Positions 10,121 through 64,000 of a stretch of DNA of 64,000 nucleotides are shown here, piece by piece. The stretch comes from a virus (taxonomy: Duplodnaviria; Heunggongvirae; Uroviricota; Caudoviricetes): IMG/VR virus record IMGVR_UViG_3300033146_005641, positions 119,352 to 183,351 of that record; one strand, given 5' to 3'. Both the position numbers and the translations under genes were made by a program. Numbering within the stretch: position 1 is the first letter of the stretch; each line of letters begins with the position of its first letter. Under the pieces are notes generated by a model. That model was given only the letters and a program-made list of their open reading frames with translations. It did no database searches and was not told the origin of the DNA.

Positions 10121-10175
10121 CTTTAAGTCTCTTTATTCTATAATATGTTTTATATAAAGAGAGAAGGATAGAAAG
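10121..10175 (+). promoter_or_regulatory. junction-cassette promoter copy (no upstream FI-tail ORF)
   Basis: CTTTAAGTCTCTTTATTCTATAATATGTTTTATATAAAGAGAGAAGGATAGAAAGATG. Contains TATAAT, then TATATAAAG (T4 late-promoter-like), then the AAGGA RBS. Confidence 0.5.
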
Positions 10176-10802
10176 ATGAGGTTTAGAGACACTAAATATG
10201 GTGATTTAACAGGACAAACCTATGAAGGTAATATTAGTGTAGAGGATTTAAGTCTAACTTCTCTAGAAGGCGCTCCAGAGGTAGTTAATGGTAATTTTGA
10301 TTGTTATAATAATCAATTAACTTCTCTAAAAGGAGCTCCAGAGGTAGTTAGAGGAAATTTTAATTGTTCTAACAACAATTTAGCCTCTCTAGAGAGAGCT
10401 CCTAAGGTAGTCGATGGTAATTTTTATTGCTCTTACAACAATTTAACCTCTCTAGAGGGGGCTCCGGAGATAATTAATGGTAATTTTTATTGTCATTTTA
10501 ATAATCTAACCTCTCTAGAGGGTTCTCCTAAGGCAGTTAATGGTATTTTTTATTGTTATAATAATAAACTTACTTCTCTAGAAGGAGCTCCAGAGGCAGT
10601 TAGAGGAGATTTTAGTTGCTCAGATAACAATTTAACTTCTCTAGAAGGAGCTCCTAAGGTAGTCGATGGTAATTTTTATTGCTTTAATAATCGACTAGTT
10701 TCTCTAGAAGGTCTACCATACTCTAAAAATGTTAGTTCAGATTTTAGTAAATTAGAAGTTGATGAGTATATGAAGGATGTATTTCCTTATCATTTTATCT
10801 GA
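10176..10802 (+). CDS. LTSLEGAP 21-aa repeat protein (leucine-rich-type repeats), paralog family member
   Basis: N-terminus MRFRDTKYGDLTGQTYEG, then tandem 21-aa units NxLTSLEGAPxxVxGxFxCxx, then C-terminal ...DVFPYHFI. Confidence 0.7.
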   Translation: MRFRDTKYGDLTGQTYEGNISVEDLSLTSLEGAPEVVNGNFDCYNNQLTSLKGAPEVVRGNFNCSNNNLASLERAPKVVDGNFYCSYNNLTSLEGAPEIINGNFYCHFNNLTSLEGSPKAVNGIFYCYNNKLTSLEGAPEAVRGDFSCSDNNLTSLEGAPKVVDGNFYCFNNRLVSLEGLPYSKNVSSDFSKLEVDEYMKDVFPYHFI

Positions 10803-10854
10803 TTTTAAGTCTTATTACACTATAATATATTATATAAAGAGAGAAGGATAGAAA
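10785..10854 (+). promoter_or_regulatory. junction cassette (encodes ...PYHFI stop, promoter, RBS, ATG)
   Basis: CCTTATCATTTTATCTGATTTTAAGTCTTATTACACTATAATATATTATATAAAGAGAGAAGGATAGAAAATG. Confidence 0.55.
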
Positions 10855-11862
10855 ATGAATTTAGAAAAAATTAGAGAAATTGAAAAACAATATAATATTA
10901 AGATTATCTATATTACAGTGAGCGGTTCTAAATTATATGGTACAGATAATGAAAACTCAGATACCGATTATAAAGGAATTTTTATTCCTTCTGTAGAAGA
11001 CGTTTTACTAAAAAGAGATAAATCCTCTATAGATCTTAGCACAAATAAAACAAACATTAAAAATTCTAAAGAGGATGTAGATATTACTTTACATAGTATT
11101 CATAGTTATTTTAATCAGCTATCTAAATTCGAAACAGGTGCTGCAGATGTTCTTTTTAGTATGTTTAGAAAAGACACTATCATTTACGAAACACCCGAAT
11201 CTAAAACTATTAAAGATAATTATAAATTATTTTTAAATAAAAATATGAAATCTTTTATCGGATATGCTTTAGGTCAAACTAAAAAATTCGGAATTAAGGG
11301 AGCTAGATATAATGAATTAGATAATTTTGTTAAATGGCTAAATTCAGTTGACAAAGATAAATCTATTAAATTAGAAAATTTATTTGATGATATTAAAAAT
11401 TATATTAAAGAAAACAACACAAAATATATCAAATTTGTTAAAACACAAGGATCTAACAATGAAATTTGGGATTATATTTCTATTCTTGGTAAATTATTTC
11501 ACGGTAGTGTGACTCTAGAATATTTTATAACAAGAATTAATCAACTATATAATCAGTTTGGTAATAGAACAAAAACTATTGCTAGTACAGATTCTAAAAC
11601 GGACTTTAAAGCATTATCTCACGCATATCGCGTAGCTTATGAGGTCGAAGAACTTTTAGAAACTAGTTTTATTAGATTTCCTTTAAATAGTAAAAAATTT
11701 ATTAAATCTATTAAAGAAGGTAAACAAAGTTATGAGGGTGTTGTAGAAATAGTTCAACAAATTTTAGAACGTGTAGACCTTTTATTATTAGAATCTAAGC
11801 TGCCCGAAGAAGCGAATAGAAAAGAAATTGATAAAATCTTACTAAATTACTATAAATACTAA
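10855..11862 (+). CDS. Pol-beta-type nucleotidyltransferase-fold protein, unknown substrate
   Basis: hG[GS]x9-13DhD signature: ITVSGSKLYGTDNENSDTDYKGIF. The C-terminal two thirds are predicted helical. Confidence 0.5.
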   Translation: MNLEKIREIEKQYNIKIIYITVSGSKLYGTDNENSDTDYKGIFIPSVEDVLLKRDKSSIDLSTNKTNIKNSKEDVDITLHSIHSYFNQLSKFETGAADVLFSMFRKDTIIYETPESKTIKDNYKLFLNKNMKSFIGYALGQTKKFGIKGARYNELDNFVKWLNSVDKDKSIKLENLFDDIKNYIKENNTKYIKFVKTQGSNNEIWDYISILGKLFHGSVTLEYFITRINQLYNQFGNRTKTIASTDSKTDFKALSHAYRVAYEVEELLETSFIRFPLNSKKFIKSIKEGKQSYEGVVEIVQQILERVDLLLLESKLPEEANRKEIDKILLNYYKY

Positions 11863-13572: not shown

Positions 13573-13851
13573 ATGAAAGATTTAAAAATATATATTAAAC
13601 AAGATGGAATGTATAATACCCTAGAAATAGTATTATCTAATATTCCCGTAGAAGATGTTAAAGACTGGTATAGTTTCGGTAGTCATAAAGAGTTTTCAAA
13701 TCTTATGGAAGCCCTATTATATATTAATAGTGTCTTTTTATCTGACACAGATTCTGCAGACTGTGTTAGAATTATAGATAGAAAAATTTCCGACGAGATT
13801 ACAATAACTAAAAAACAAATAAGAGAAATGTATCCTCAACATTTTATATAA
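13573..13851 (+). CDS. hypothetical protein ending ...YPQHFI
   Basis: 92-aa ORF with a C-terminal tail of the PQYFI family. Confidence 0.45.
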   Translation: MKDLKIYIKQDGMYNTLEIVLSNIPVEDVKDWYSFGSHKEFSNLMEALLYINSVFLSDTDSADCVRIIDRKISDEITITKKQIREMYPQHFI

Positions 13852-20783: not shown

Positions 20784-20829
20784 CTTTAAGTCTCTTTATT
20801 ATATAATATAGAATATAAAGGAGAGAAAG
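20784..20829 (+). promoter_or_regulatory. junction-type promoter variant upstream of 20830
   Basis: TCTTTAAGTCTCTTTATTATATAATATAGAATATAAAGGAGAGAAAGATG. Confidence 0.45.
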
Positions 20830-21045
20830 ATGTTTAAAGATAAATCAATAAAAGATCAATTTATAGAGGAAGTATATTATACATTAAATGGAGATTATGG
20901 ATATTCTCTTAAAAATGAAGAACTTCCAAAAGAATATATAAAAGTTATAGAATCTTGGATTAAAAGAGCTGAAAAATATAATCACATAGAGAACGATGAA
21001 GTAGAAGATGCTTGTGATGCTATTGTAAAATTCGATAAAAAATAG
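20830..21045 (+). CDS. hypothetical protein
   Basis: 71-aa ORF downstream of a junction-type promoter. Confidence 0.4.
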   Translation: MFKDKSIKDQFIEEVYYTLNGDYGYSLKNEELPKEYIKVIESWIKRAEKYNHIENDEVEDACDAIVKFDKK

Positions 21046-22934: not shown

Positions 22935-23168
22935 ATGTCTTCTTACGCTTTTAGATTAAAATCACTAGACTGGTTTTTAAAAAATGCTTTAAAAAAAGAT
23001 GATTCTTTCTATCCGATGCATGAAAAAGGATTTTCTATACGCATTCAAGCGGTATTGTTAGGTAGACTATTATATATTAATAATTTAAATAAAAAGAAAT
23101 TAAAAGAGTATTCTTGGGGTATCGAGGAGATTTATTATCCTGATACCCATCCTCAATATTTTATATAG
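22935..23168 (+). CDS. hypothetical protein ending ...HPQYFI
   Basis: 77-aa ORF with a PQYFI-family tail. ATG overlaps the gp52 stop. Confidence 0.4.
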   Translation: MSSYAFRLKSLDWFLKNALKKDDSFYPMHEKGFSIRIQAVLLGRLLYINNLNKKKLKEYSWGIEEIYYPDTHPQYFI

Positions 23169-23208
23169 CTTTAAGTCTTATTATACTATAATATATTATA
23201 TGAAAAAG
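23151..23208 (+). promoter_or_regulatory. junction cassette
   Basis: CCTCAATATTTTATATAGCTTTAAGTCTTATTATACTATAATATATTATATGAAAAAGATG. Confidence 0.5.
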
Positions 23209-25081: not shown

Positions 25082-25089
25082 GGAAGTCA

Positions 25090-32293: not shown

Positions 32294-32334
32294 TTTATAA
32301 AATTATTATATAATAAGGTATAAAAAGGAAATAG

Positions 32335-34400: not shown

Positions 34401-34523
34401 AAAAAGAATTATTATATTTAATAATATTTACAAGGATTAGAACAATGTGCAGAAAACCTGATGATAAAATCACTAGAATTATATGAGTAAAATATATATA
34501 ACGACTATTAGAAGAGGAAGAAA

Positions 34524-44649: not shown

Positions 44650-44684
44650 GATATCTTCCATAAAGAAGCAAAGGTGGAAATTTA

Positions 44685-45791: not shown

Positions 45792-45795
45792 AAAT

Positions 45796-47606: not shown

Positions 47607-47982
47607 AATGTCAGAGGATAGAAAAAAATTAAGTTTAGAAGAAAGATCTAAAAAATTTTTAGACATTACTTTAAGAATAAATGAAATTAGTGAAGAATAT
47701 AATGAAATAGATCCCATAGTAGGATATAGATTTCAAGGAATGTTCAGAACTTTTATCTCTCTTATGAAAAGAGCAGAAGAAAAAGATATGACTAATTTAG
47801 AATCTCAAATTAAAGTATTTGAAGAAATGTTTGATTTTAGTTTTGAAGAAGAAGTTGAAAAAAGAGTTAAAGAGGTATTAGGTGACGAATATCACAGAAA
47901 TGTTCAAGAAGATATAAATAAAATAGATGATGAGGTTCTAGCTAATATTAAAAAGAACATTTCAGAATATTTAAAGGAATAG
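47596..47982 (+). CDS. hypothetical protein
   Basis: 128 aa, charged helical. Confidence 0.4.
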   Translation: MKNKMSEDRKKLSLEERSKKFLDITLRINEISEEYNEIDPIVGYRFQGMFRTFISLMKRAEEKDMTNLESQIKVFEEMFDFSFEEEVEKRVKEVLGDEYHRNVQEDINKIDDEVLANIKKNISEYLKE

Positions 47983-47984
47983 AA

Positions 47985-48551: not shown

Positions 48552-48597
48552 CACTCATAAATAATCTCACCTTAAGTTTCTTATACTATAATATGGT

Positions 48598-50028
48598 ATG
48601 AGAAACTATAAAAATTCAAACGACCTAATAACATATCTTTGTATAGACTACCTAGAATCTAAAGGCTATAAATTTTTAGAGAATAGAGGATATACTATTT
48701 CTGTGGAAAAAGATGCCGATAAAAATTTTTATTGGACATCTGATTCACCTTTTAAAATATTTCATCCTGTAGAACATAAGACTCACAACTATTTTAAAGA
48801 AATTTCTAAGTTGAGAGAATTTAAAAAATTATGGGGTGAGAAATGTGATGAAGACCTCAATGAAATATTTCAAGAAGAGGATATAAACTCCTATAAAATA
48901 AAAACTAATGTACAAGATCTGGATAATTTTAAAGATGATGTTAGTAATTTTTTAGAGAATTATAAATTTTTAAAGATTTCCTCGCCTATGGCTACTAGAA
49001 AAAGTATTATAATTGAGGAGACACTTAAGCAATCCTTAAGAAAGAGGTTAAGAGTTTTATTTATTACTCCTAGAGTTTCTTTATCCTATGATATCCATAA
49101 AAAATATTTTCCTCACTTATCTCACTATAAACATAGTAATTATACTCTAGGAGATAGTCTAGTAGTTCAATTTGATAGTTTACATAAGTTTGACATGGAT
49201 TATTTTGATATAGTAATATTAGATGAGGTTACCAGTTTAATGTTATATATGAGCGATACGTATGAGGGAAAGGCTGAAAGATATAGAAAAAATCTTCAGA
49301 AATTTTATTCTCTAAAAGATAAAAAATTCTTATTATTAGATGCTTTTCTTTTAAAGTTTCCGCTAGAATCTGAAGACGATAGATCTCTCGGTATATTAAA
49401 TAATTTTAGAGAAGATATAAAAATAACTGAATATGTTAATAAAAACAATTTTACAGGAAGAATAATTAGAGAAGCTAAAAAGAATCCTATATCGGTTTCA
49501 AGTAATGAAAAAAGATTTTTAGTAAAAATTAAAGAAAAACTAGAAAAAAGAGGATTAAGATGTTTGATGCTTAATTCCGAAACCGTAGATAAAGATAGTG
49601 TATATGAAGAGTTTGCAAAAAAAGAAACGGATTATGATGTTATATTATATTCACCTACGTTAACAGTCGGAGTAAGTATTTTTTCTAATATTAAAAATCA
49701 TTTTCATTACGATTTATCCGGAACTATTGACGTTATCAGTTCTATTCAGATGATAAGAAGAGTTAGAAACGCTAAACACATTCATTATTATATTCAGGGT
49801 AGAAGAAGTTTTCTTCCAACGGAGGAAAAAATTATTCAAAGACATTTAGAGGATAGTTTTAAAATTATTAACGAATTTGGAGAATCTTTCGGTATTAATA
49901 AAATAGGTGAAATGTTGAGTAAAATAAAAAGAATAAAAAACGTTTTATTAAATTCTCACAAATATGCTTTTAGAGATTTATTAAAAAGACAATTTAAAGA
50001 AGTAGAATTTAATAAATTGGAGATATGA
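48598..50028 (+). CDS. P-loop NTPase, helicase-like (divergent Walker A SPMATRKS, Walker B ILDEVTSL)
   Basis: 476 aa. The motifs are degenerate and the family is not recognised. Confidence 0.35.
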   Translation: MRNYKNSNDLITYLCIDYLESKGYKFLENRGYTISVEKDADKNFYWTSDSPFKIFHPVEHKTHNYFKEISKLREFKKLWGEKCDEDLNEIFQEEDINSYKIKTNVQDLDNFKDDVSNFLENYKFLKISSPMATRKSIIIEETLKQSLRKRLRVLFITPRVSLSYDIHKKYFPHLSHYKHSNYTLGDSLVVQFDSLHKFDMDYFDIVILDEVTSLMLYMSDTYEGKAERYRKNLQKFYSLKDKKFLLLDAFLLKFPLESEDDRSLGILNNFREDIKITEYVNKNNFTGRIIREAKKNPISVSSNEKRFLVKIKEKLEKRGLRCLMLNSETVDKDSVYEEFAKKETDYDVILYSPTLTVGVSIFSNIKNHFHYDLSGTIDVISSIQMIRRVRNAKHIHYYIQGRRSFLPTEEKIIQRHLEDSFKIINEFGESFGINKIGEMLSKIKRIKNVLLNSHKYAFRDLLKRQFKEVEFNKLEI

Positions 50029-50237
50029 TGGAATTTTATTTTAAAAAGACGCTGTTTGGAATGGTTTTAATGGTAAAAGATAGAAAACCAGGAAATTGGC
50101 CTGGAGAGTGGAAGTATTTTTGGAGAAGAGCATCTCAATTAGAAGCGTCTAATTTTACTACTGAAACAGGAATAGCTAAAAAAGAAGTGGAGAGTTATAG
50201 AGAATTTAAGGATAAGTTCCCTCAATATTTTATCTGA
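50025..50237 (+). CDS. small protein ending ...KFPQYFI
   Basis: 70 aa. Start ATGATGG overlaps the upstream stop. Confidence 0.4.
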   Translation: MMEFYFKKTLFGMVLMVKDRKPGNWPGEWKYFWRRASQLEASNFTTETGIAKKEVESYREFKDKFPQYFI

Positions 50238-50290
50238 TTTTAAGTTTTAATATGTTATAATATATTATACAAAGAGAGAAGGATAGAAAG
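50216..50290 (+). promoter_or_regulatory. junction cassette
   Basis: TTCCCTCAATATTTTATCTGATTTTAAGTTTTAATATGTTATAATATATTATACAAAGAGAGAAGGATAGAAAGATG. Confidence 0.55.
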
Positions 50291-50980
50291 ATGAGGTTTA
50301 GAGACACTAAATATGGCGATTTAACAGGACAAACCTATGAAGGAGATATTGATGTAAGTGGTTTAAACTTAACATCTCTAGAGGGTGCTCCAGAGGTAGT
50401 TAAAGAAGGATTTTACTGTAATGATAATCAATTAACTTCTCTAGAGGGTGCTCCTAAGGTAGTCGACGGTAGTTTTTATTGCTATGATAATCAATTAACC
50501 TCTCTAGAGGGTGCTCCTAAGGTAGTTAGAGGAGATTTTGATTGTTATAATAATAAACTAACTTCTCTAGAAGGGGCTCCTGAGGTAGTTAAAGAAGGAT
50601 TTTACTGTAATGAAAACAGTCTAACTTCTCTAGAGGGTGCTCCTGAGGTAATCGGTGGTAATTTTAATTGCACTTACAACAATTTAACTACTCTAGAAGG
50701 AGCTCCAGAGACAGTTGGTGGTAGTTTTAATTGCTCTAAAAATAATCTAACTTCTCTAGAAGGTGCTCCAGAGGTAGTTAATGGTAATTTTAATTGTTAT
50801 AATAATAAACTTACTTCTCTAGAAGGCGCTCCTGAGAGAGTTAGAAGAGATTTTGATTGTTCAGAAAACGATCTAACTTCTCTAGAGGGATTACCTTTTT
50901 CTAGAGAAATAAGGTCCGATTTTGATGAAAGAGAGATTAATGATTATATTAAAGATAGATTTCCCTATCGTTTTATATGA
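50291..50980 (+). CDS. LTSLEGAP 21-aa repeat protein (paralog)
   Basis: MRFRDTKYGDLTGQTYEGDIDVSGLNLTSLEGAPE..., C-terminal ...RFPYRFI. Confidence 0.7.
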   Translation: MRFRDTKYGDLTGQTYEGDIDVSGLNLTSLEGAPEVVKEGFYCNDNQLTSLEGAPKVVDGSFYCYDNQLTSLEGAPKVVRGDFDCYNNKLTSLEGAPEVVKEGFYCNENSLTSLEGAPEVIGGNFNCTYNNLTTLEGAPETVGGSFNCSKNNLTSLEGAPEVVNGNFNCYNNKLTSLEGAPERVRRDFDCSENDLTSLEGLPFSREIRSDFDEREINDYIKDRFPYRFI

Positions 50981-51033
50981 TTTTAAGTCTTATTATACTA
51001 TAATATCTTATATAAAGAGAAAAGGATAGAAAG
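50963..51033 (+). promoter_or_regulatory. junction cassette
   Basis: CCCTATCGTTTTATATGATTTTAAGTCTTATTATACTATAATATCTTATATAAAGAGAAAAGGATAGAAAGATG. Confidence 0.55.
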
Positions 51034-51912
51034 ATGAAGTTTAGAGATACTAAATATGGCGATTTAACAGGACAACCTTATGAAGGTGATGTTGATGTAA
51101 GTGGTTTAAACTTAACATCTCTAGAGGGTGCTCCTGAGGCGGTCGATGGAGATTTTAATTGTTCTAGTAACAATCTAACCTCTCTAGAGGGTACTCCTAA
51201 GGTAGTTGAAGGAGATTTTTACTGCTCTCACAACAATTTAACTTCTCTAGAAGGAGCTCCTGAGATAGTTAATGGTAATTTTAATTGCACTTACAACAAT
51301 TTAGCCTCTCTAGAAGGGGCTCCGGAGGTAATAGATGGTAGTTTTTACTGCTATGATAATCAATTAACTTCTCTAGAAGGGGCTCCTAAGGCAGTTAAAG
51401 GAGATTTTGATTGTTATAATAATAAACTTACTTCTCTAGAAGGTGCTCCAGAGGTAGTTAAAGAAGGATTTTACTGTAATGAAAACGGTCTAACCTCTTT
51501 AGAAGGAGCTCCAGAGATAGTTGATGGTAGTTTTTACTGCTATGATAATCGATTAACCTCTCTAGAAGGAGCTCCTGAGGTAGTCGGTGGTAATTTTAAT
51601 TGCTCTAAAAACAATCTAGCTTCTCTAGAAGGAGCTCCTAAGGTAGTTAATAATAATTTTGATTGCTCTAAAAATAATCTAGTCTCTCTAGAAGGATCTC
51701 CTGAGGTAGTCGGTGGTAGTTTTTACTGCTATGATAATCGATTATCTTCTCTAGAAGGTGCTCCTAAGATAGTTAAAGAAGGGTTTCACTGTAATAAAAA
51801 CAATCTAACTTCTCTAGAGGGAATACCCTATTCTAAAGGAATAATAGCTGATTTTAGTAAACTAGAAGTTAATGATTACCTAAAATCTAAATTTCCTTAT
51901 CATTTTATCTGA
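51034..51912 (+). CDS. LTSLEGAP 21-aa repeat protein (paralog)
   Basis: MKFRDTKYGDLTGQPYEGDVDVSGLNLTSLEGAPE..., C-terminal ...KFPYHFI. Confidence 0.7.
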   Translation: MKFRDTKYGDLTGQPYEGDVDVSGLNLTSLEGAPEAVDGDFNCSSNNLTSLEGTPKVVEGDFYCSHNNLTSLEGAPEIVNGNFNCTYNNLASLEGAPEVIDGSFYCYDNQLTSLEGAPKAVKGDFDCYNNKLTSLEGAPEVVKEGFYCNENGLTSLEGAPEIVDGSFYCYDNRLTSLEGAPEVVGGNFNCSKNNLASLEGAPKVVNNNFDCSKNNLVSLEGSPEVVGGSFYCYDNRLSSLEGAPKIVKEGFHCNKNNLTSLEGIPYSKGIIADFSKLEVNDYLKSKFPYHFI

Positions 51913-51961
51913 TTTTAGGTCTCTTTATTCTATAATATATTATATAAAGAAGGATAGAAAG
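51895..51961 (+). promoter_or_regulatory. junction cassette
   Basis: CCTTATCATTTTATCTGATTTTAGGTCTCTTTATTCTATAATATATTATATAAAGAAGGATAGAAAGATG. Confidence 0.55.
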
Positions 51962-53029
51962 ATGACGTTTAAAGATACTAAGTATGGTGATTTAACAGGA
52001 CAAACCTATAAAGGTGATATTAATGTATGTGGTTTAGATTTAACCTCTCTAGAAGGGGCTCCAGAGGTAGTTGATGGTAGTTTTTACTGCTATGATAATC
52101 AACTAACCTCTCTAGAAGGATCTCCTGAGGTAGTCGATGGTAATTTTTACTGTTATGATAATCAATTAACTTCTCTAGAAGGGGCTCCAGAGGTAGTTGA
52201 TGGTAATTTTTATTGTCATAATAATCAATTGACTTCTCTAGAAGGATCTCCGGAGGTAGTCAGCGGTATTTTTTATTGTTATAATAATAGACTTACTTCT
52301 CTAGAGGGGTCTCCTAAGATAGTTAAAGGAGATTTTTATTGCTCTTACAACAATTTAACTTCTCTAGAGGGGGTTCCGGAGGTAGTTGATGGTAGTTTTT
52401 ATTGCTATGATAATCGATTATCCTCTCTAGAAGGAGCTCCTAGGATAATCGATGGTAATTTTTATTGTTATAATAATCGACTAATTTCTCTAGAAGGTGC
52501 TCCAGAGGCAGTTGATGGTAATTTTTATTGTTATAATAATCGATTAACTTCTCTAGAAGGCTCTCCAGAGGTAGTCGACGATAATTTTGATTGTTCAGAA
52601 AATGATCTAGCTTCTCTAGAAGGGTCTCCTAGAGTAGTTAATAATAATTTTGATTGCTCTAAAAATAATCTAGTCTCTCTAGAAGGATCTCCTGAGGTAG
52701 TTAGAGGATATTTTGATTGTTCAAACAATCAACTAACTTCTCTAGAGGGAGCTCCAGAGATAGTTAAAGAAGGCTTTTACTGTAATAAAAACGATCTAGT
52801 TTCCCTAGAGGGGGCTCCTGAGGTAGTCGATGGTAATTTTAATTGTGCTAAAAATAATCTAACTACGCTAGAAGGGGCTCCTAAGGTAGTTGATGGTAAT
52901 TTTTACTGCTATGATAATCGATTAACTTCTCTAGAGGGATTACCTTTTTCTAGAGAAATAAGGTCTGATTTTAGTAAACTAGAAGTTAATGATTACTTAA
53001 AATCTAAATTCCCTTATCATTTTATCTGA
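51962..53029 (+). CDS. LTSLEGAP 21-aa repeat protein (paralog, longest)
   Basis: MTFKDTKYGDLTGQTYKGDINVCGLDLTSLEGAPE..., C-terminal ...KFPYHFI. Confidence 0.7.
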   Translation: MTFKDTKYGDLTGQTYKGDINVCGLDLTSLEGAPEVVDGSFYCYDNQLTSLEGSPEVVDGNFYCYDNQLTSLEGAPEVVDGNFYCHNNQLTSLEGSPEVVSGIFYCYNNRLTSLEGSPKIVKGDFYCSYNNLTSLEGVPEVVDGSFYCYDNRLSSLEGAPRIIDGNFYCYNNRLISLEGAPEAVDGNFYCYNNRLTSLEGSPEVVDDNFDCSENDLASLEGSPRVVNNNFDCSKNNLVSLEGSPEVVRGYFDCSNNQLTSLEGAPEIVKEGFYCNKNDLVSLEGAPEVVDGNFNCAKNNLTTLEGAPKVVDGNFYCYDNRLTSLEGLPFSREIRSDFSKLEVNDYLKSKFPYHFI

Positions 53030-53082
53030 TTTTAAGTCTTATTACACTATAATATATTATATAAAGAAAGAAGAATAGAAAG
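53012..53082 (+). promoter_or_regulatory. junction cassette
   Basis: CCTTATCATTTTATCTGATTTTAAGTCTTATTACACTATAATATATTATATAAAGAAAGAAGAATAGAAAGATG. Confidence 0.55.
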
Positions 53083-53415
53083 ATGAGAAAGCTTACAAAA
53101 TCAGAACTTAATTTATATAAGGATTATATTTCAGGATATGTATCATTATTATCACCTGAAGAAATGTCTGAAGAAATGGAAATCGAAATTGAAGATACCG
53201 AAACAGGAAAAATAATAACTTCAGGTACCTTTAATCCTTCTTATTTTGTAGAATCTGCTTCAGCAGTAAAAACAGAAGAAATAAATGAACTAAAAAATAT
53301 AATTGAAAGATATGAAAAATTTCTTAATAGAATGTCAATAAAAACAGAATATTATGATATAGATGATATGATAGATGGTCTAGAAGACTATGATGTAGTA
53401 ACTCAAAAAGGATAA
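53083..53415 (+). CDS. hypothetical acidic protein
   Basis: 110 aa. Follows a junction cassette. Confidence 0.4.
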   Translation: MRKLTKSELNLYKDYISGYVSLLSPEEMSEEMEIEIEDTETGKIITSGTFNPSYFVESASAVKTEEINELKNIIERYEKFLNRMSIKTEYYDIDDMIDGLEDYDVVTQKG

Positions 53416-55559: not shown

Positions 55560-56477
55560 ATGAATGATTATAAGCTAGAGGGTTTTCCTGATATTATAAG
55601 AGAATCTATAAAGGAAACACCGCCTATAAGATCTAGAAATGAAATTATAAAAATTTTAGAAAACATCATAGATTTAGAGGGTCTTCACTTTTATGTTTTT
55701 GGAGGATCTCAACATCTTTTAGATATTAGTAATGAATTTACGAATAATTCCGATATAGATTTTTTCTTTCCTACAGAAGAGGATTATAAAGAAATGTTAA
55801 AGAGGATGAGAAATAGCAAGAAATGCTATTTCTCCTCTTCTAAATTTTCAGACCATACATCTTTAAATGATTTTACACTTCAGCTAATAAATTATAAATT
55901 TGGCGACCATCACTATCATTTTGACGAGTTTGATCTTAATAAATCTAAAATCGGATTTGAATATATAGACGGAAAACTAATAGATAGAAGAGGAGATGAC
56001 TATGAAGATGATCTTTATATAATTTACGAGAAATTTAATGTTCAAACCGCAAATAGATATATAAAATATTTTTATAGATGCTATGATAAGAATCATCTTG
56101 AAGATTTATCTCATCCGGTCTCTTATAGCTTTTTAAAAGACATAGAACATATATCATCCTACCTAATATCTAATGAAAATATAAAATATGATTCATATAA
56201 TAATAATTTCAAAATAGGATATCAAATTCTTGAATCATTAGTAAGAATATTAGTGGATAATGGTGAAATATCCTCTAAATGCATAGATATCATCTTAGAG
56301 GAAATGAAAAAGAAATGGAACACTAGTAAAGTTATTAGTTTTTGGAAGATTTTTTACGAAGGTGTAATCAATAACTATAACTCTATGCATAGAGATGAAA
56401 TATATTCTGCTCACTCTTCTCTACATTCTAAAGTATCGGTCGAATTTAAAAATAAATTTCCTCAATATTTTATCTAG
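55560..56477 (+). CDS. Pol-beta-type nucleotidyltransferase-fold protein ending ...KFPQYFI
   Basis: FGGSQHLLDISNEFTNNSDIDFFF (GGS x12 DID signature). Confidence 0.45.
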   Translation: MNDYKLEGFPDIIRESIKETPPIRSRNEIIKILENIIDLEGLHFYVFGGSQHLLDISNEFTNNSDIDFFFPTEEDYKEMLKRMRNSKKCYFSSSKFSDHTSLNDFTLQLINYKFGDHHYHFDEFDLNKSKIGFEYIDGKLIDRRGDDYEDDLYIIYEKFNVQTANRYIKYFYRCYDKNHLEDLSHPVSYSFLKDIEHISSYLISNENIKYDSYNNNFKIGYQILESLVRILVDNGEISSKCIDIILEEMKKKWNTSKVISFWKIFYEGVINNYNSMHRDEIYSAHSSLHSKVSVEFKNKFPQYFI

Positions 56478-56529
56478 CTTTAAGTCTCTTTATTCTATAA
56501 TATGTTAATATAAAGAGAAAAGGAAAGAG
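56460..56529 (+). promoter_or_regulatory. junction cassette
   Basis: CCTCAATATTTTATCTAGCTTTAAGTCTCTTTATTCTATAATATGTTAATATAAAGAGAAAAGGAAAGAGATG. Confidence 0.55.
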
Positions 56530-56760
56530 ATGAAAGCTTACGAAAGCTCTATAACTAATAAATTATATAAAAATATAGAAGATCTTAAAAAAGATGAAAG
56601 AGATTTTATAAAATCATATTTATATAATAACCTAGAATGGATGGAATATAAAGGAGATCTTATAGAACTAGATTTACTCTTCGATGCTTTTGATAGATTT
56701 GGAAAAGATATAGCTTTAGATATTTTAGATAAATTAAGAACAGAGAACGGTAATGATTAG
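56530..56760 (+). CDS. hypothetical protein
   Basis: 76 aa. Confidence 0.4.
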   Translation: MKAYESSITNKLYKNIEDLKKDERDFIKSYLYNNLEWMEYKGDLIELDLLFDAFDRFGKDIALDILDKLRTENGND

Positions 56761-57862: not shown

Positions 57863-58208
57863 AATACAAGAAATAAAAAAAGATATAAAGAGTTATGAAA
57901 TCTGTAAGAATTATAAAGACGGATTTTTATTATTAAAATCTGAAAATACTATGATGTCTGGTAACAAAATTACAATTCATAAACATACCTTTCATATTGT
58001 GAATGAAACGGAAGATTCTTATGAGGTAGTACAGGGTCCTATTATTAAAATACCTAAAAGCGATTTAATATTAGATGAGGTTGAGGCTACCTATAAAACT
58101 ATACTATATAGATTACAAGAAGGTTTAGGTATAAGTAGATCTCATCAAAATAAATATCCTGAACTGATAGAAAAGGTTAAAATAGAATATCCTCAATATT
58201 TTATCTGA
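57855..58208 (+). CDS. hypothetical protein ending ...EYPQYFI
   Basis: 117 aa. Confidence 0.4.
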   Translation: MSEIQEIKKDIKSYEICKNYKDGFLLLKSENTMMSGNKITIHKHTFHIVNETEDSYEVVQGPIIKIPKSDLILDEVEATYKTILYRLQEGLGISRSHQNKYPELIEKVKIEYPQYFI

Positions 58209-58261
58209 TTTTAAGTTAGCTTATATTATAATATACTACATAAAGAGAAAAGGATAGAAGG
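58191..58261 (+). promoter_or_regulatory. junction cassette
   Basis: CCTCAATATTTTATCTGATTTTAAGTTAGCTTATATTATAATATACTACATAAAGAGAAAAGGATAGAAGGATG. Confidence 0.5.
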
Positions 58262-58443
58262 ATGGATATTAGTGATTTTGTTTTTGAAGATAATGAGAGT
58301 TTTGTTTATGTTGCGAAACACCTTTAACTGAAGTTGAAGACGAGGATGAACTTTATTGTGATGAGTGTGAAGAGTCTATTCCTGATGATGAGGTAGATAC
58401 TATGCACATCTCTTATATTGCCGATGAGGATAAATGTCTGTAG
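58262..58443 (+). pseudogene. short acidic Cys-containing ORF interrupted by a frameshift (21 codons, then ~40 codons in +1 frame)
   Basis: MDISDFVFEDNESFVYVAKHL stop; the next frame reads TPLTEVEDEDELYCDECEESIPDDEVDTMHISYIADEDKCL. Confidence 0.2.
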
Positions 58444-59421: not shown

Positions 59422-59669
59422 TGGAGAGATATGGTAGATATAATAAGTTAGGATTTTTTAAATTTGATTCTATACATCCTGAGGATTTACCAAAAGTAAT
59501 CAAAATAATAGAAACCGGAGATCTTACTCTTAAAAGCTATACAAAAGATTTCTTTAATTTTGCTCTTATACCGGCTTTTATTTTTTATCCTTTTTTTCTA
59601 GGATATTGGGGTATAGAAAGATTTAGATTTTATCTATTTCTTAAAAAACATCCTCAATATAGAATCTAA
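59421..59669 (+). CDS. small membrane protein ending ...HPQYRI (variant tail)
   Basis: 82 aa. FALIPAFIFYPFFLGYWGI hydrophobic segment. Confidence 0.4.
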   Translation: MERYGRYNKLGFFKFDSIHPEDLPKVIKIIETGDLTLKSYTKDFFNFALIPAFIFYPFFLGYWGIERFRFYLFLKKHPQYRI

Positions 59670-59724
59670 TCTGATTTTAAGTCTTATAATACAATATATT
59701 ATATAAAGAGAGAAGGATAGAAAG
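59652..59724 (+). promoter_or_regulatory. junction cassette (deletion variant in tail-coding part)
   Basis: CCTCAATATAGAATCTAATCTGATTTTAAGTCTTATAATACAATATATTATATAAAGAGAGAAGGATAGAAAGATG. Confidence 0.5.
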
Positions 59725-59970
59725 ATGATAGTTTTATATCAAAATAGAAACGAGAATGATGAATTATATTACGCTGAACTTTTGACAGATCCTCATCTTA
59801 TTGAGGAAGGTATATCATATATAAGTGTAGGTACTAATCATAGACTGAATTCACCTCATATATCTGATTGGAAAAAATTATATATAAACTCGGTAAATTT
59901 GAAAGATGTTGTGTGTCTTTATAGAGATATGGATTCATTAAAATGGCATCAAGCGGCTTATTTTATATGA
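59725..59970 (+). CDS. hypothetical protein ending ...AAYFI
   Basis: 81 aa. Confidence 0.4.
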   Translation: MIVLYQNRNENDELYYAELLTDPHLIEEGISYISVGTNHRLNSPHISDWKKLYINSVNLKDVVCLYRDMDSLKWHQAAYFI

Positions 59971-59979
59971 GGATTAGGA

Positions 59980-60234
59980 ATGTATAATAGAGATTTATAT
60001 TTTGATAAAGGAGAATATTTTTTATATTCTTTTAATGACGAACCAGATATAATAGAGATAGTATTAAAACTTTATTCTAAGAAAAGAAATTATACTAATG
60101 TATTAACATTAATAGGCTCGTATACCAACAAATATAATATTTACAGATTCACTCCAGATTTCATAGTTCGAGAATTAGGTCACTTTGAAAGTTTTGATGA
60201 GTTAAAAAGAGCATATCCACAATATTTTATATAA
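59980..60234 (+). CDS. hypothetical protein ending ...AYPQYFI
   Basis: 84 aa. Confidence 0.4.
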   Translation: MYNRDLYFDKGEYFLYSFNDEPDIIEIVLKLYSKKRNYTNVLTLIGSYTNKYNIYRFTPDFIVRELGHFESFDELKRAYPQYFI

Positions 60235-60244: not shown

Positions 60245-60454
60245 ATGAAAGCATTGATTATTTATCAGGGAGAGTTAAGAACAGGAACATATTATCCTCC
60301 TACGAGATGGAAAGATCTTAAAAAAGAATTAAAGAGAGGTAAATATATTTCTTTAGATAGGGGGTCAATAAAGTTAGTTAAAAATAAAGACATCATATGC
60401 TCGAGAGAGACTGAGGAAGATATTAAAAGAGATTTTCCACAATATTTTATTTAA
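60245..60454 (+). CDS. hypothetical protein ending ...DFPQYFI
   Basis: 69 aa. AAGGAGAGAAAAATG RBS. Confidence 0.4.
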   Translation: MKALIIYQGELRTGTYYPPTRWKDLKKELKRGKYISLDRGSIKLVKNKDIICSRETEEDIKRDFPQYFI

Positions 60455-60501
60455 TTTTAAGAATATTATAGTATAATTATAATACAAAAGAGGAGAGAGA
60501 A

Positions 60502-61116
60502 ATGAAAGAAAAACTTTTAGAAAAGACTGAGATGACCGTTTCAGAAGGATTAGCAAAGCTTAAGTTGCTTGATAAACGTATTCGTAAAGCTATGACTTCA
60601 AAATATGTTGGATATAAAATAGGTAGCAAAGTTCAAGAAAATTTTGAAAGTGAAAAGGCTAAATCAAACTATCAATCTTTAAATGATCTGATAAAATACC
60701 GTTCAAACCTTAAAATGGCTATTAATGAGTCAAACCTTAAAACTAAAGTTAAAGTTGCAGGTAAGAAAATGACAGCTCTTGAGGCTATCGAATATAAAAC
60801 TACTATCCAGTATAAAAAAGAATTCTTAGAAAGTATTAGAAAAAACTACATACGTGTTCAGCAAAGAATTGAGTATATAAATGAAGAAATTCAAGAACGT
60901 CTAGATTCTCAAGTAAAAAGTGCTTTTGAAAAAGCCAGTAAAAAAGAGATCGAAGATTTTACTCAAACTTTTCTAAAAAATAATGGTGTTTCGTTAGAAG
61001 ATCCTTTAAGGATTGAGAATCTTATCGAGTCTCTTGATAGAGAAATTGACGAATTCGAGAGTGAGGTAGACTTTGTTTTATCTACTTCTAATGCAACAAC
61101 AGTGATTAAGGTTTAA
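60502..61116 (+). CDS. hypothetical coiled-coil protein
   Basis: 204 aa. AGAGGAGAGAGAAATG RBS. Confidence 0.45.
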   Translation: MKEKLLEKTEMTVSEGLAKLKLLDKRIRKAMTSKYVGYKIGSKVQENFESEKAKSNYQSLNDLIKYRSNLKMAINESNLKTKVKVAGKKMTALEAIEYKTTIQYKKEFLESIRKNYIRVQQRIEYINEEIQERLDSQVKSAFEKASKKEIEDFTQTFLKNNGVSLEDPLRIENLIESLDREIDEFESEVDFVLSTSNATTVIKV

Positions 61117-61430: not shown

Positions 61431-61850
61431 ATGAGATACGTATTTTCTTTACCTCAGGTTTCATCTAAACTAGTTAGAGTGTATGCTGCATCTATAGAAG
61501 TATTAACCTATGATGATGAGAGTAAACTAATTAAAGCGGAAAGGTGGGTAGACGGAGAATTAAAAGAGTTTAACCATAATAAGCGTAGATTTTACGTACA
61601 AAAAGCAGATGTTAAAAATATTATATCTCAATGTAAAGATAATAAAAATCCTCAAGTATTATTTAGAGGCGAAATTAAATCATATTATACTGACAATAAA
61701 CAGGAAGCCATACTAATACAACTGTATTATGCTAGCTATATTAAAGAATTGATGGAGAAAAAAAAGAATAGATTAGAGAAAATTATTGATACTCTTCCTA
61801 AGGAAGATGAGGATTTTATCAAGAATAATTTTCCACATTATTTTATTTAA
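61431..61850 (+). CDS. hypothetical protein ending ...NFPHYFI
   Basis: 139 aa. AAGGAGTAAAAATG RBS. Confidence 0.45.
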   Translation: MRYVFSLPQVSSKLVRVYAASIEVLTYDDESKLIKAERWVDGELKEFNHNKRRFYVQKADVKNIISQCKDNKNPQVLFRGEIKSYYTDNKQEAILIQLYYASYIKELMEKKKNRLEKIIDTLPKEDEDFIKNNFPHYFI

Positions 61851-61879: not shown

Positions 61880-62176
61880 ATGATAGAATGGAAAGATTTA
61901 GAGGTTGGGGATGTATTTATCTATAGGTTTGAAAAAGATTCTTATTTTTTAGCATATGTTTTACGGGCTAATAAAGATGTAAGTATCGAGATTCAAGATA
62001 TAAAGAATATTTCAAGAGGTGTGTCGAAAGGTATGTCCATAGAAGTAGATTCTTTTAATATATTTTTTAGTGATAAATATGATATGAGTACTTTTAAATT
62101 AGTAAAATATTTAGGTAATTTGAAAGGTGGAAGAGTAGAAGAGTTTAGTGTTAAGTTTCCTCAATATTTTATATAG
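61880..62176 (+). CDS. 98-aa protein, tandem paralog 1, ending ...VKFPQYFI
   Basis: MIEWKDLEVGDVFIYRFEKDSYFLAYVL... Confidence 0.5.
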   Translation: MIEWKDLEVGDVFIYRFEKDSYFLAYVLRANKDVSIEIQDIKNISRGVSKGMSIEVDSFNIFFSDKYDMSTFKLVKYLGNLKGGRVEEFSVKFPQYFI

Positions 62177-62229
62177 CTTTAAGATATATTACAATATAAT
62201 ATATTATATAAAGAGAAAAGGATAGAAAG
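62159..62229 (+). promoter_or_regulatory. junction cassette
   Basis: CCTCAATATTTTATATAGCTTTAAGATATATTACAATATAATATATTATATAAAGAGAAAAGGATAGAAAGATG. Confidence 0.5.
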
Positions 62230-62526
62230 ATGAGAGAATGGAAAGATTTAGAAGTTGGGGATGTATTTATCTATAGGCTTGAAAAAGATTATTATTTTTT
62301 AGCATATGTTTTACAAGCTAACGAAGATGTAAGTATCGAGATTCAAGATATAAAGAATATTTCAAGCGGTATATTAAAAGATGCGCCTATAGAAGTAGAT
62401 TATTTTAATATATTTTTTAATGGTAAATATGATATGAACACTTTTAAATTAGTAAAATATTTAGGTAATTTGAAAGGTGGAAGAGTAGAAGAGTTTAGTG
62501 TTAAGTTTCCTCAATATTTTATCTAA
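62230..62526 (+). CDS. 98-aa protein, tandem paralog 2, ending ...VKFPQYFI
   Basis: MREWKDLEVGDVFIYRLEKDYYFLAYVL... Near-identical to 61880..62176 except for a central patch. Confidence 0.5.
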   Translation: MREWKDLEVGDVFIYRLEKDYYFLAYVLQANEDVSIEIQDIKNISSGILKDAPIEVDYFNIFFNGKYDMNTFKLVKYLGNLKGGRVEEFSVKFPQYFI

Positions 62527-62575
62527 TTTTAGGTTATTTTATTCTATAATATATTATATAAAGAAGGATATAAAG
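62509..62575 (+). promoter_or_regulatory. junction cassette
   Basis: CCTCAATATTTTATCTAATTTTAGGTTATTTTATTCTATAATATATTATATAAAGAAGGATATAAAGATG. Confidence 0.5.
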
Positions 62576-63391
62576 ATGAAGTTTAGAGACACTAAATACG
62601 GTGATTTAACAGGACAAACCTATGAAGATAATATTGATGTATGTGGTTTAGATTTAACCTCTCTAGAGGGTGCTCCTGAGATAGTTAATGGTAGTTTTTA
62701 CTGCTATGATAATCAACTAACTTCTCTAGAGGGTGCTCCTAAGACAATCGATGGTAGTTTTAATTGCTCTAGCAACAATCTAACTTCTCTAGAAGGAGCT
62801 CCAGGGGCAGGTAAAGACGGGTTTTACTGTAATAACAACAATCTATCTTCTCTAGAGGGTTCTCCTAGGATGGTCGATGGTAATTTTAATTGCTCTTACA
62901 ACAATTTAACTTCTCTAGAAGGAGCTCCAGGAGTAGTTAATGGTAGTTTTTACTGTTATGATAATCAACTAACCTCTCTAGAAGGAGCTCCGGAGGTAGT
63001 TAATAATAATTTTAATTGTTCAGATAATCAACTAACTTCTCTAGAAGGAGCTCCAGGAGTAGTTAATGGTAATTTTAATTGCTTTAGCAATCAATTAACT
63101 TCCCTAGAGGGGGCTCCGAAGGTAGTTAGTGGTAGTTTTGAATGTTCTTACAATAATCTAACTTCTCTAGAAGGAGCTCCGGAGGTAGTTAATAATAATT
63201 TTAATTGCTCTAAAAATAATCTAACCTCTCTAGAAGGAGCCCCTAAGGTAGTTAGTGGTAATTTTTACTGTTATGATAATCGATTAGCTTCATTAGGATA
63301 TCTACCCTACTCTAAAAATGTTAGTTCAGATTTTAATAAAAATGAAGTTAATGATTACTTAAAATCTAAATTCCCTCAACATTTTATCTGA
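62576..63391 (+). CDS. LTSLEGAP 21-aa repeat protein (paralog)
   Basis: Start at the ATG at 62576 (MKFRDTKYGDLTGQTYEDNIDVCGLDLTSLEGAPE). The ORF track's 62498 GTG start runs through the junction cassette. C-terminal ...KFPQHFI. Confidence 0.7.
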   Translation: MKFRDTKYGDLTGQTYEDNIDVCGLDLTSLEGAPEIVNGSFYCYDNQLTSLEGAPKTIDGSFNCSSNNLTSLEGAPGAGKDGFYCNNNNLSSLEGSPRMVDGNFNCSYNNLTSLEGAPGVVNGSFYCYDNQLTSLEGAPEVVNNNFNCSDNQLTSLEGAPGVVNGNFNCFSNQLTSLEGAPKVVSGSFECSYNNLTSLEGAPEVVNNNFNCSKNNLTSLEGAPKVVSGNFYCYDNRLASLGYLPYSKNVSSDFNKNEVNDYLKSKFPQHFI

Positions 63392-63402
63392 TTTTAAGTC
63401 TA
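63374..63402 (+). promoter_or_regulatory. truncated junction cassette (tail-coding part plus TGATTTTAAGTCT only; promoter, RBS and ATG missing)
   Basis: CCTCAACATTTTATCTGATTTTAAGTCT is followed immediately by mid-repeat coding sequence. Confidence 0.5.
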
Positions 63403-63990
63403 GAGGTAGTTAAAGGAAGTTTTTACAGCTTTAATAATCAATTAACCTCTCTAGAGGGTGCTCCAGAGGTAGTTAGAGGAAATTTTAATTGTTCTAACAA
63501 CAATTTAACCTCTCTAGAGGGTGCTCCTAAGGTAGTTAGAGGAGATTTTGATTGTTATAATAATAAACTAACTTCTCTAGAGGGTGCTCCTAAGGTAGTT
63601 AGAGGAGATTTTGATTGTTATAATAATAAACTAACCTCTCTAGAAGGGGCTCCTAGGGCAGTTAATGGTAATTTTAATTGCTCTAGCAACAATTTAGCTT
63701 CTCTAGAAGGAGCTCCTAAGACAGTTAAAGGAGATTTTTATTGTTCTTACAACGATCTAACTTCTCTAGAGGGAGTTCCGGAGGTAGTCGATGGTAGCTT
63801 TTACTGTAATGAAAACAATCTAACTACTCTAGAAGGAGCTCCTAAGGCAGTTAAAGGAGATTTTTACTGCTATGATAATCGATTAACTTCATTAGGATAT
63901 CTACCCTACTCTAAAAATGTTAGTTCAGATTTTAATAAAAATGAAGTTAATGATTACTTAAAATCTAAATTCCCTCAACATTTTATCTGA
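63403..63990 (+). pseudogene. 5'-truncated, start-less LTSLEGAP repeat-gene fragment (mosaic of paralog sequences) ending ...KFPQHFI
   Basis: In-frame repeat units (EVVKGSFYSFNNQLTSLEGAPEVVRGNFNCSNNNLTSLEGAPKVVRGDFDCYNNKLTSLEG...) begin directly after TGATTTTAAGTCT. No ATG, GTG or TTG lies in frame between the upstream stop (63352-63354) and the TGA at 63988-63990. Segments are identical to parts of the 10176 and 50291 genes. Confidence 0.6.
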
Positions 63991-64000
63991 TTTTAAGTCT
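63972..64000 (+). promoter_or_regulatory. next junction cassette (cut by window end)
   Basis: CCCTCAACATTTTATCTGATTTTAAGTCT at the window edge. Confidence 0.45.

Follow-up and report, generated by a model that had tools for sequence, protein, structure and literature searches.

A strictly C-terminal hexapeptide on unrelated proteins of a T4-related phage group and the separable promoter cassette that often follows it

The genes of large phages are for the most part small ORFans, which offer no handle for study. In a 64,000-nucleotide stretch of DNA from a virus of the Caudoviricetes (hereafter the window; IMG/VR record IMGVR_UViG_3300033146_005641, positions 119,352 to 183,351), a preliminary description had noticed a recurrent DNA module of about 70 bp that joins unrelated open reading frames (ORFs), and had concluded that this cassette forces a common C-terminal peptide on the proteins encoded upstream. 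Here we report that peptide and cassette each occur without the other, in the window as well as in related phages, so that the apparent cassette resolves into two separable elements and the proposed causality has to be reversed. The first element is a strictly C-terminal hexapeptide, the tail, which marks 17 proteins of the window, 54 of a cultured Vibrio phage and arrays of proteins in several uncultured contigs; the second is the promoter, 5' untranslated region (UTR) and start codon of the next gene. We consider it probable that the two are adjacent and independent, the one a C-terminal signal selected as a peptide and the other an expression cassette.

The 18-nt tail DNA, CCTCAATATTTTATCTGA, was matched 14 times in the window with at most 3 mismatches, every time on the + strand, compared to 0.38 +/- 0.55 matches expected from shuffled sequences (none of 100 shuffles reached 14). 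All 14 matches are in frame and close an ORF of at least 70 codons, and the stop position is constant in all of them, via TGA, TAG or TAA. Together with 17 intergenic modules of promoter type, described below, this confirms that the recurrent module is real and that its 5' part encodes the last residues of the upstream ORF. At the protein level, 17 ORFs of the + strand terminate in [FYH]P[QYH][YHR][FR]I, with no internal occurrence in open frames, and one degenerate carrier ending in ..AAYFI at 59970 brings the carriers to 18. Comparison of these 18 by BLAST, after trimming of the last 14 residues, left 12 unrelated groups (six leucine-rich repeat (LRR) copies, one pair of 98 amino acids (aa) and 10 singletons), and because of this they may be called otherwise unrelated, as had been claimed. 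Pairwise identity within the modules is approximately 80% for each of tail, promoter and UTR, but 59-60% for flanking 60-mers in the same alignment. The list of sites given beforehand needed some corrections (Table 1). Two of them (10121 and 20784) consist of promoter and UTR only, two others (63374 and 63972) of a tail with only ten module bases (TTTTAAGTCT), and 59652 is an indel variant, while the tails at 13840, 60220 and 61840, listed as weaker copies, have no promoter behind them.

Table 1. Coordinates of tails and promoter cassettes in the window. Tails are given with the stop codon that follows them.
Positions	Strand	Tail and its carrier	Cassette and context
10122..10178	+		Promoter/UTR cassette; no upstream tail (open frame ends ..NNSP at 10104); precedes LRR gene 10176-10802
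10782..10857	+	FPYHFI-stop, LRR protein	Then promoter/UTR cassette of ORF 10855-11862
13831..13851	+	YPQHFI-stop, 92-aa ORF	No promoter; next gene 9 nt on
20785..20832	+		Promoter/UTR cassette; no upstream tail; after topoisomerase subunit ending ..IAKL
23148..23202	+	HPQYFI-stop, 77-aa ORF	Then promoter cassette with diverged UTR
50217..50237	+	FPQYFI-stop, 70-aa ORF 50025-50237	
50238..50293	+		Promoter/5'UTR/Shine-Dalgarno/start cassette of LRR gene 50291-50980; TTTAAGT box 50239, TATAAT end 50261, AAGGA, ATG 50291
50960..50980	+	FPYRFI-stop, 229-aa LRR protein	
50981..51036	+		Promoter/UTR cassette of LRR gene 51034-51912
51892..51912	+	FPYHFI-stop, 292-aa LRR protein	
51913..51964	+		Promoter/UTR cassette of LRR gene 51962-53029
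53009..53029	+	FPYHFI-stop, 355-aa LRR protein	
53030..53085	+		Promoter/UTR cassette of 110-aa ORF 53083-53415
56457..56532	+	FPQYFI-stop, 305-aa NTase-like protein	Then promoter/UTR cassette
58188..58264	+	YPQYFI-stop, 117-aa ORF	Then promoter/UTR cassette; ATG 58262 opens 21 codons only
59649..59727	+	HPQYRI-stop (TAA), variant	Non-coding TCTGATTTTAAGTC, rearranged -10/UTR, ATG 59725
60214..60234	+	YPQYFI-stop	No promoter; Shine-Dalgarno and next ATG directly after
60434..60504	+	FPQYFI-stop	Then weaker promoter (TTTAAG 60456, TATAAT) of ORF 60502-61116
61830..61850	+	FPHYFI-stop, 139-aa ORF	No promoter module
62156..62232	+	FPQYFI-stop, 98-aa ORF	Then promoter/UTR cassette
62506..62578	+	FPQYFI-stop, paralogous 98-aa ORF	Then promoter/UTR cassette of LRR gene 62576-63391
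63371..63401	+	FPQHFI-stop	TTTTAAGTCT only, joined directly to internal LRR repeat; start-less LRR copy to 63990
63970..64000	+	FPQHFI-stop	Module beginning, cut by window end

The window has a G+C content of approximately 28% and carries T4-type replication and packaging genes (gp32-like single-stranded DNA-binding protein, topoisomerase II subunits, RNase H, sliding clamp and large terminase). Megablast and protein searches against the INPHARED phages revealed no close cultured relative; the top match of the large terminase was to an unclassified group of Vibrio myoviruses (phiKT1024, pv27, phiTY18; 43% identity), and its identity to Campylobacter phages was 41%. As a cultured relative we used Vibrio phage VB_VaC_SRILMA (hereafter SRILMA), to which the phiKT1024 group is nearly identical and whose homolog of the window LRR protein shows 54.5% identity over 96% of the query. 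Scanning the whole SRILMA genome for the tail motif, coding strand versus other strand, revealed on the coding strand 54 ORFs that terminate in [FYHWL]P..[FYLIMR][ILV], almost always as [HYF]PExF[IL]; the opposite strand had none, and the frequency of the pattern at internal positions predicts 0.55. Tail-bearing genes thus make up approximately 17% of the genes of this phage. In SRILMA the strict motif stands at the chain end 51 times and never inside a chain, and pooling of window and SRILMA gives 68 terminal and no internal occurrences. After removal of the last 14 aa, the 72 carriers of both genomes formed 63 phmmer clusters, and searches of the carriers against Pfam and PHROGs found no common family. 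Degenerate DNA scans of IMG/VR further revealed arrays of tails of the Pro-Glu type on uncultured contigs of 25-38% G+C (L021 with 6 tails, L022 with 9, L024 with 10 in 7.8 kb, and L026 with 5), some of them on DUF285-type repeat proteins.

The consensus of the tail is [FYH]-P-[QYH]-[YH]-F-I-COOH in the window and [HYF]-P-E-x-[FL]-[IL]-COOH in the relatives. Counting the last residue as 0, position -5 is aromatic (H, Y or F), and Pro occupies position -4 in all 54 SRILMA carriers and in 17 of 18 from the window, all except the degenerate ORF ending at 59970. Position -3 is Q, Y or H in the window lineage and Glu without exception in SRILMA. Phe predominates at position -1, with Leu in some tails, and Ile at position 0, with Leu or Val in some. 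Approximately 12 amphipathic, helix-prone residues precede the tail, with hydrophobic residues at -12 and -9, Lys or Arg at -8 and -6, and acidic residues from -15 to -13.

Comparison of synonymous with non-synonymous change indicated that this conservation is at the level of the protein. In the 54 SRILMA tails Pro and Glu are invariant, while all four Pro codons (CCA 31, CCG 11, CCT 8, CCC 4) and both Glu codons (GAG 28, GAA 26) are used. Likewise, the synonymous changes CAG, CCA and ATT are found inside a conserved FPQYFI in relatives of approximately 70% nucleotide identity. The motif is also kept between strongly diverged homologs: the NTase-like protein ends in FPQYFI in the window, in NPHLFI in the uncultured relative L005 (32% identity) and in YPEYFL in SRILMA (28% over 137 residues), and the 117-aa ORF and its L005 homolog (31% identity) both end in [FY]PQYFI. 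By the criterion set in the preliminary description itself, free synonymous sites with conserved amino acids, the tail is a protein feature rather than a by-product of a promoter. By these comparisons it clearly behaves as a peptide under selection at the chain end only, and a whole clade of phages carries it on numerous accessory proteins that are unrelated to each other. Of the three readings offered in the preliminary description, the one in which the shared peptide is itself functional thus held in essence, as a putative sorting, degradation or docking signal.

Separability of tail and cassette is apparent within the window itself. Tails without a promoter are found at the ORF ends 13851, 60234 and 61850, where the next gene or unrelated sequence follows directly, and at least six promoter cassettes (6688, 10122, 12878, 18294, 20785 and 23478) have no tail and share no sequence upstream of TTTAAG. 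Uncultured relatives (L001-L009, approximately 70% nucleotide identity to the window) displayed the same picture, with tails that do or do not precede a cassette and cassettes that follow no tail; their tail variants include FPHRLI, FPHKLI, LPQYFI, NPHLFI, RPNLFI and YPFLII. For 42 of the 54 SRILMA tails the next ORF overlaps or starts no more than 25 nt further on, too close for a promoter cassette to fit in between.

These data bear on the proposal that the tail codons are conserved because the promoter behind them uses their DNA as an upstream element, UP or -35-like, with the peptide as a by-product. The tail DNA is indeed A/T-rich and would lie at approximately -53 to -33 relative to a start downstream of TATAAT. 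Moreover, the last codon is the rare ATC in 10 of 17 window tails, compared to a background of 10%, mostly as ATC-TGA adjoining TTTTAAGT, and at 59669, where an indel shifted the stop upstream, TCTGATTTTAAGTC (ATCTGA) was retained as non-coding DNA. As an account of the whole tail the proposal is nonetheless scarcely credible, given that the six tail-less cassettes are dissimilar upstream of TTTAAG, that three window tails precede no promoter, that SRILMA and other contigs keep the peptide with free synonymous variation and mostly with the next gene at hand, and that the stop position is fixed through three different stop codons. What stands of it concerns the last codon and the stop.

A constraint could also act at the level of RNA, if the tail codons served as ribosome-binding region of a coupled downstream gene, with the ribosome-binding sequence in the Pro-Glu codons followed by an A/T spacer, and the geometry of Shine-Dalgarno sequence (SD), ATG and stop locked the frame and thereby repeated the peptide. 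In SRILMA and other coupled arrays a GGAG/AGAG-like SD is found approximately 8 nt before an ATG overlapping the stop (ATATGA), and ATATGA and GTATGA overlaps predominate in L021, L022 and L026. Correspondingly, SRILMA tails are enriched for GAG at -3 (52% versus 21% background), for ATA as terminal Ile codon (68% versus 19%) and for TGA as stop (39% versus 10%), and Glu at -3 is invariant in the coupled lineages but replaced by Q, Y or H in the window lineage, in which the next gene brings its own promoter and SD. Such a signal would, however, account for no more than the Glu codon and a final codon ending in A. Left unexplained are the Pro codon, whose CC is invariant while any of the four bases may come third, the aromatic -5 residue, the Phe at -1 and the upstream helix pattern; GAA, a poor SD, still makes up 48% at -3, and the motif persists both in genes with the SD beyond their stop and in the window, with its downstream promoters. 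We therefore regard an RNA signal as a very unlikely cause of the tail. Judged from codon usage, joint shaping at the DNA level appears to be limited to the last sense codon and the stop, which would have been co-shaped as ATC-TGA at the promoter edge in the window lineage and, with GAG at -3, as ATA-TGA in the coupled relatives. Coding ends would thus be co-opted in two ways, the last codons being overlaid by a promoter edge in one lineage and by an SD with overlapping start in others.

The second element was characterized in the 17 promoter-type modules of the window (TTTAAG, N10-11, TATAAT, a UTR with AAGGA, ATG), of which 11 begin 0-2 nt past the stop codon of a tail. All strong copies consist of TTTAAGTnT, N, TATAAT, ATATTATATAAAGAGAGAAGGATAGAAAG and ATG, whereas the weaker promoters share only TTTAAG, N10-11 and TATAAT. 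The stretch from TATAAT to ATG, approximately 29 nt long, is conserved and contains the AAGGA SD. TATAAT is present in all modules, and instead of a canonical -35 element a TTTAAGT box lies 10-11 nt upstream of it; no TTGACA-like hexamer was found 16-18 nt from a module TATAAT. Near-identical cassettes are also present in relatives whose coding DNA is approximately 70% identical. Within this material the cassette is best described as an independent, conserved, putative expression unit of the next gene. The cassette at 58209-58330 is of full strength although its ATG 58262 opens 21 codons, pointing to a very small gene or a decayed one. In addition, an ATG lies 5 nt after TATAAT in genes at 48552-48600 of the window and at 1298-1330 and 3104-3140 of L001; this arrangement is conserved between window and L001, each of which has two genes that look leaderless, and suggests leaderless transcripts.

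Several known promoter types were compared with the module. In T4 middle promoters the box of MotA, (a/t)(a/t)(a/t)TGCTT(t/c)A, has its centre at -30, approximately 12 bp from the -10 box. The module, in which 10-11 nt separate box and TATAAT, is similar in geometry, but its TTTAAGT mismatches the MotA box, and a MotA-dependent promoter was rejected. The sigma-70 consensus of Campylobacter jejuni consists of a -35 element TTTAAGTnTT, a -16 element and a -10 element TATAAT (cited in PMC3824568). Module TTTAAGTcTT matches this -35 10-mer exactly, although the consensus may not be that of the host; the distance from the box to a second A/T box, TATAAA, is 19 nt as in the consensus construct of the same paper, and further points of likeness are the AAGGA SD and the 28% G+C of the genome. 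Unlike the consensus, in which the spacing is 19 nt, the module has its TATAAT only 7 nt past the 10-mer, and the weaker window promoters keep only the geometry of TTTAAG, N10-11 and TATAAT. Either TATAAT or TATAAA may thus be the -10 box in use.

The module had also been proposed to be a dual promoter, with a T4 late-type box beside the TATAAT. Exact TATAAATA boxes, as used by T4-type late promoters (gp55), occur 13 times in the window, fewer than the 31 +/- 5 expected by chance. In eight cases a start codon, mostly that of a virion or packaging gene, follows 4-28 nt downstream, and one of these boxes is found 4 nt before the terminase ATG (37148). None of the 13 falls within a module. The modules consistently have TATAAAGA in its place, and position 7 of this sequence is always G; the count of 7 of 8 matches to TATAAATA given in the preliminary description is arithmetically right when aligned in this way, but a dual promoter finds no support in it. 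Going by box positions, the late genes of the window phage appear to use TATAAATA as their box, with the cassette having no exact copy.

A further explanation of the tail is that a recombinogenic junction of approximately 75 bp, resembling the promoter early stem-loops (PeSLs) of T4-type phages, spread or homogenised it by recombination or gene conversion, the peptide hitch-hiking along. Several junctions fit such shuffling. L001 has an extra gene of 591 aa between two promoter copies, at exactly the place where the window has none, and one LRR gene compared to three in tandem in the window. Modules of nearly the same sequence border the dispersed LRR paralogs at 10 kb, 50-53 kb and 62.5-64 kb, some of which lie 40 kb apart and which share approximately 70% identity in coding DNA. 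Start-less LRR copies with a truncated module are present in both phages (window 63392-63990, L001 4819-5408); TTTTAAGTCT runs into an internal LRR repeat in the window copy, and the TATAAT box into LRR codon 5 in that of L001. These copies are likely deletion products at cassette edges. Finally, an 11-bp tandem duplication (ATTTTATCTAG twice) is found at the junction of tail and stop before the cassette in L002 (~2655-2690, - strand) and L009 (~370-400).

By definition, PeSLs take in the stop codon of the preceding gene as well as the promoter, SD and start codon of the next (Arbiol et al. 2010, PMC2839356) and are known as cassettes from T4-type phages (PMC2839356; Comeau et al. 2014, PMC4122927). 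Like these repeated intergenic cassettes of approximately 50-80 bp, which lie in hyperplastic regions upstream of ORFans, the window modules span the upstream stop, the SD and the next start, between ORFans in variable regions; in the few junctions compared, indels or replacements between related phages also appear to lie at cassette copies. Unlike PeSLs, they have no stable stem-loop, the defining feature of the PeSL, and no terminator: six modules folded against shuffles gave z-scores of -0.94 to +0.69, none beyond chance, and terminator-like sites were not enriched in the window (5 found versus 4.2 expected), with none inside a module. Other differences are the TTTAAGT box 10-11 nt from TATAAT in place of a TTGACA -35 element, and the in-frame C-terminal peptide, no conserved counterpart of which is described for PeSLs. 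In its composition the cassette would thus be a fairly ordinary regulatory cassette of PeSL type minus the stem-loop.

As the origin of the tail, hitch-hiking on such a junction appears unlikely. It does not explain tails without cassettes; the 18-nt tail DNAs of SRILMA vary synonymously and abut unrelated sequence, leaving too little homology for recombination; the motif is kept in homologs at 28-32% identity; and the stem-loop of the PeSL is absent. The earlier suggestion of a recombination portal may nevertheless hold as a secondary property, since indels and start-less fusions lie at module edges, although it leaves the peptide unexplained. It is plausible that the cassette-bounded indels reflect PeSL-like shuffling, for which the comparison of window and L001 rests on few junctions. 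The joint conservation of approximately 75 nt could secondarily offer the homology by which genes are gained, lost or duplicated cassette by cassette.

The main rival to a recognition signal is a structural chain end, that is, a helix and Pro-capped turn whose hydrophobic residues pack on the protein's own core, arisen by descent or convergence and without a common partner; in the case of descent the source would be a single, very fast-evolving paralog family. The hydrophobic pattern at -12, -9, -5 and -1/0 is heptad-like, and many carriers are approximately 70-125 aa long and lie in tandem arrays, as in a diversifying family. An AlphaFold2 (AF2) model of the LRR protein had a predicted local distance difference test score (pLDDT) of 95.9 and placed the preceding helix (213-223) confidently on the end of the solenoid. 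In the same model, however, the last nine residues had the lowest confidence (mean 73). The tail is terminal in 68 cases and internal in none, with invariant Pro and in 63 unrelated groups, and its carriers range from 64 to 425 aa and include LRR, DUF285-type, NTase-like and zinc-finger-like proteins. Furthermore, the LRR family ends differently elsewhere: the best 120 of more than 7000 homologs had no tail and showed other lineage-specific ends, because of which we consider the tail a clade-specific add-on rather than inherited with the LRR family. On balance we doubt the structural explanation, while taking it seriously. Among the LRR homologs of other metagenomes (best 120 of more than 7000), recurrent ends such as ..DLVGDLDDVGF, ..EALERHKRRII, ..YQGFKGMI and ..RFGHFD were observed. 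The acidic ..DLVGDLDDVGF resembles the C-terminus of gp32; the window gp32 ends in DLDDLLADLG, and the DnaB-like helicase of SRILMA in DLDDLYAELGL.

Most likely, one common partner recognises the tail as a short linear signal at the free C-terminus of its carriers. We infer such a partner from the strict terminality, the recurrence of target-binding repeats as front ends and the lower confidence of the last residues, and also from the fact that LRR homologs of other phages carry other lineage-specific C-terminal tails. Some observations weigh against our reading of a peptide-selected signal beside an independent cassette. K[YH]PExF is also found at ordinary helix-Pro-helix junctions inside unrelated solved or designed proteins, which makes a purely structural role conceivable, and the AF2 model of the small 98-aa carrier (pLDDT 54.7) was uninformative. 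Invariance of Glu at -3 is confined to lineages whose tail codons double as the SD of the next gene, and because GAG is enriched in the coupled lineages, part of the tail conservation is at the RNA level. A canonical sigma-70 consensus scan of the window does not single out the modules, whose assignment as promoters is sequence-based, and the step of docking, degradation or targeting is purely one that we infer.

If tails are read in this way, the tail may serve as a tether to a hub or protease, as a degron or as a targeting signal, and proteins with differing front ends would all be handled alike via the common reader. The carriers are accessory proteins of a clade of T4-related phages, comprising small ORFans, LRR and DUF285-like repeat proteins and an NTase-like protein. 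In the window lineage the tail-bearing genes would be mostly monocistronic, and the cassette of the next gene would therefore start directly after their stop. A common partner, if true, would imply a shared pathway (turnover, delivery, localisation or packaging) for a large block of phage 'dark matter', and would provide a simple sequence rule to recognise the proteins that enter it. Candidate partners in the SRILMA record (L011-L014) are an annotated GroEL/GroES pair and two extra genes resembling a 'head maturation protease' beyond the one associated with scaffold and capsid.

Several known C-terminal functions were considered and rejected. A sliding-clamp-binding tail does not fit, as the SRILMA polymerase ends in ..TESLDDW without PExFI and T4 gp43 ends in ..SLDFLFG. 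The acidic composition of the tail disagrees with a membrane-targeting helix, and the lack of a transmembrane segment with PEP-CTERM and sortase-type signals. An LxE-like site, as expected for a prohead protease, is found in approximately 30% of tails only.

The closest concepts are, by analogy, the N-terminal capsid-targeting leader of T-even phages and adaptor families with a constant C-terminal module. Work by Repoila et al. in 1994 and by Comeau and Krisch in 2005 reportedly described a capsid targeting sequence (CTS) common to the polymorphic internal proteins of T-even phages. Like the CTS, the tail is a short peptide on unrelated, rapidly exchanged accessory proteins beside conserved regulatory DNA. 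The CTS, however, is N-terminal and removed by the prohead protease, whereas the tail is at the extreme C-terminus and has far more carriers (54 in SRILMA).

Adaptors that combine variable repeats with a constant C-terminal module include the LRR-NEL ligases of the IpaH/SspH type, poxvirus ankyrin-PRANC proteins and SspB with its C-terminal ClpX-binding peptide. Similarly, tail carriers combine variable target-binding fronts (IpaH/SspH1-like LRR, DUF285-type) with one constant C-terminal element, and the nearest solved folds to the LRR model are the substrate-binding LRR domains of IpaH/SspH1 effectors. They differ in that the tail has only approximately 6-18 residues and no enzymatic domain, and in that most carriers are small non-repeat ORFans. 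As a rather speculative extension, the tail might tether its carriers to a host or phage machine, such as an AAA+ protease, and the dozens of carriers would then be a large arsenal of interchangeable adaptors whose variable fronts (IpaH-like LRRs, DUF285-type repeats, small ORFan domains) capture one host target each and bring it to the machine. By the same analogy, and with as little confidence, they could represent a phage counterpart of IpaH, PRANC and SspB-type adaptors built on a six-residue C-terminal handle.

Further searches addressed the distribution of the tail. The motif was absent from a sampled 50-kb early region of T4 and from 50 kb of Campylobacter phage CP220. An exact-sequence look-up of the 98-aa carrier protein and a search with a 42-aa tail profile against a set of 5.8 billion proteins gave no match, and the tail profile against the PDB yielded insignificant matches at internal helix junctions only. 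A tblastn search with a 24-aa tail consensus, which is insensitive, matched SRILMA, TDDLMA and Va1 only. In the searchable literature on the motif strings and the Vibrio phage group, the tail motif was unmentioned and virion proteomics were not found; apparently, the tail has so far been undescribed in this literature, in Pfam, in PHROGs and among solved structures. Since carrier phages are in culture (checked for SRILMA and TDDLMA, probable for the closely related Pv27, phiKT1024, phiTY18 and Va1), the tail is directly testable.

Other features of the window were noted in passing. Positions 61117-61430 comprise 315 nt without an ORF and contain a tRNA T-loop-like GGTTCGATTCC; in this gap (61.1-61.4 kb) ARAGORN found no tRNA and Rfam no family above noise. 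By eye, the ORF cluster 23881-35261 includes radical-SAM, amidinotransferase, glycosyltransferase and epimerase look-alikes, similar in kind to a block that is annotated as radical-SAM/amidinotransferase genes in the record NC_027997 of Campylobacter phage CP220 (70-79 kb). A 188-aa ORF (47985-48551) has a Cys-rich repeat, CFCNCNYCACNCNFCTCNCNFSCPCNCHY, at its end and a counterpart of 75% identity in L001. Upstream of it lie three ORFs (43519-44649, 44685-45791 and 46758-47606) with radical-SAM-type Cys motifs, again by eye, and the layout of the region 43519-48551 looks like that of a precursor with its maturases, as for ribosomally synthesized and post-translationally modified peptides (RiPPs).

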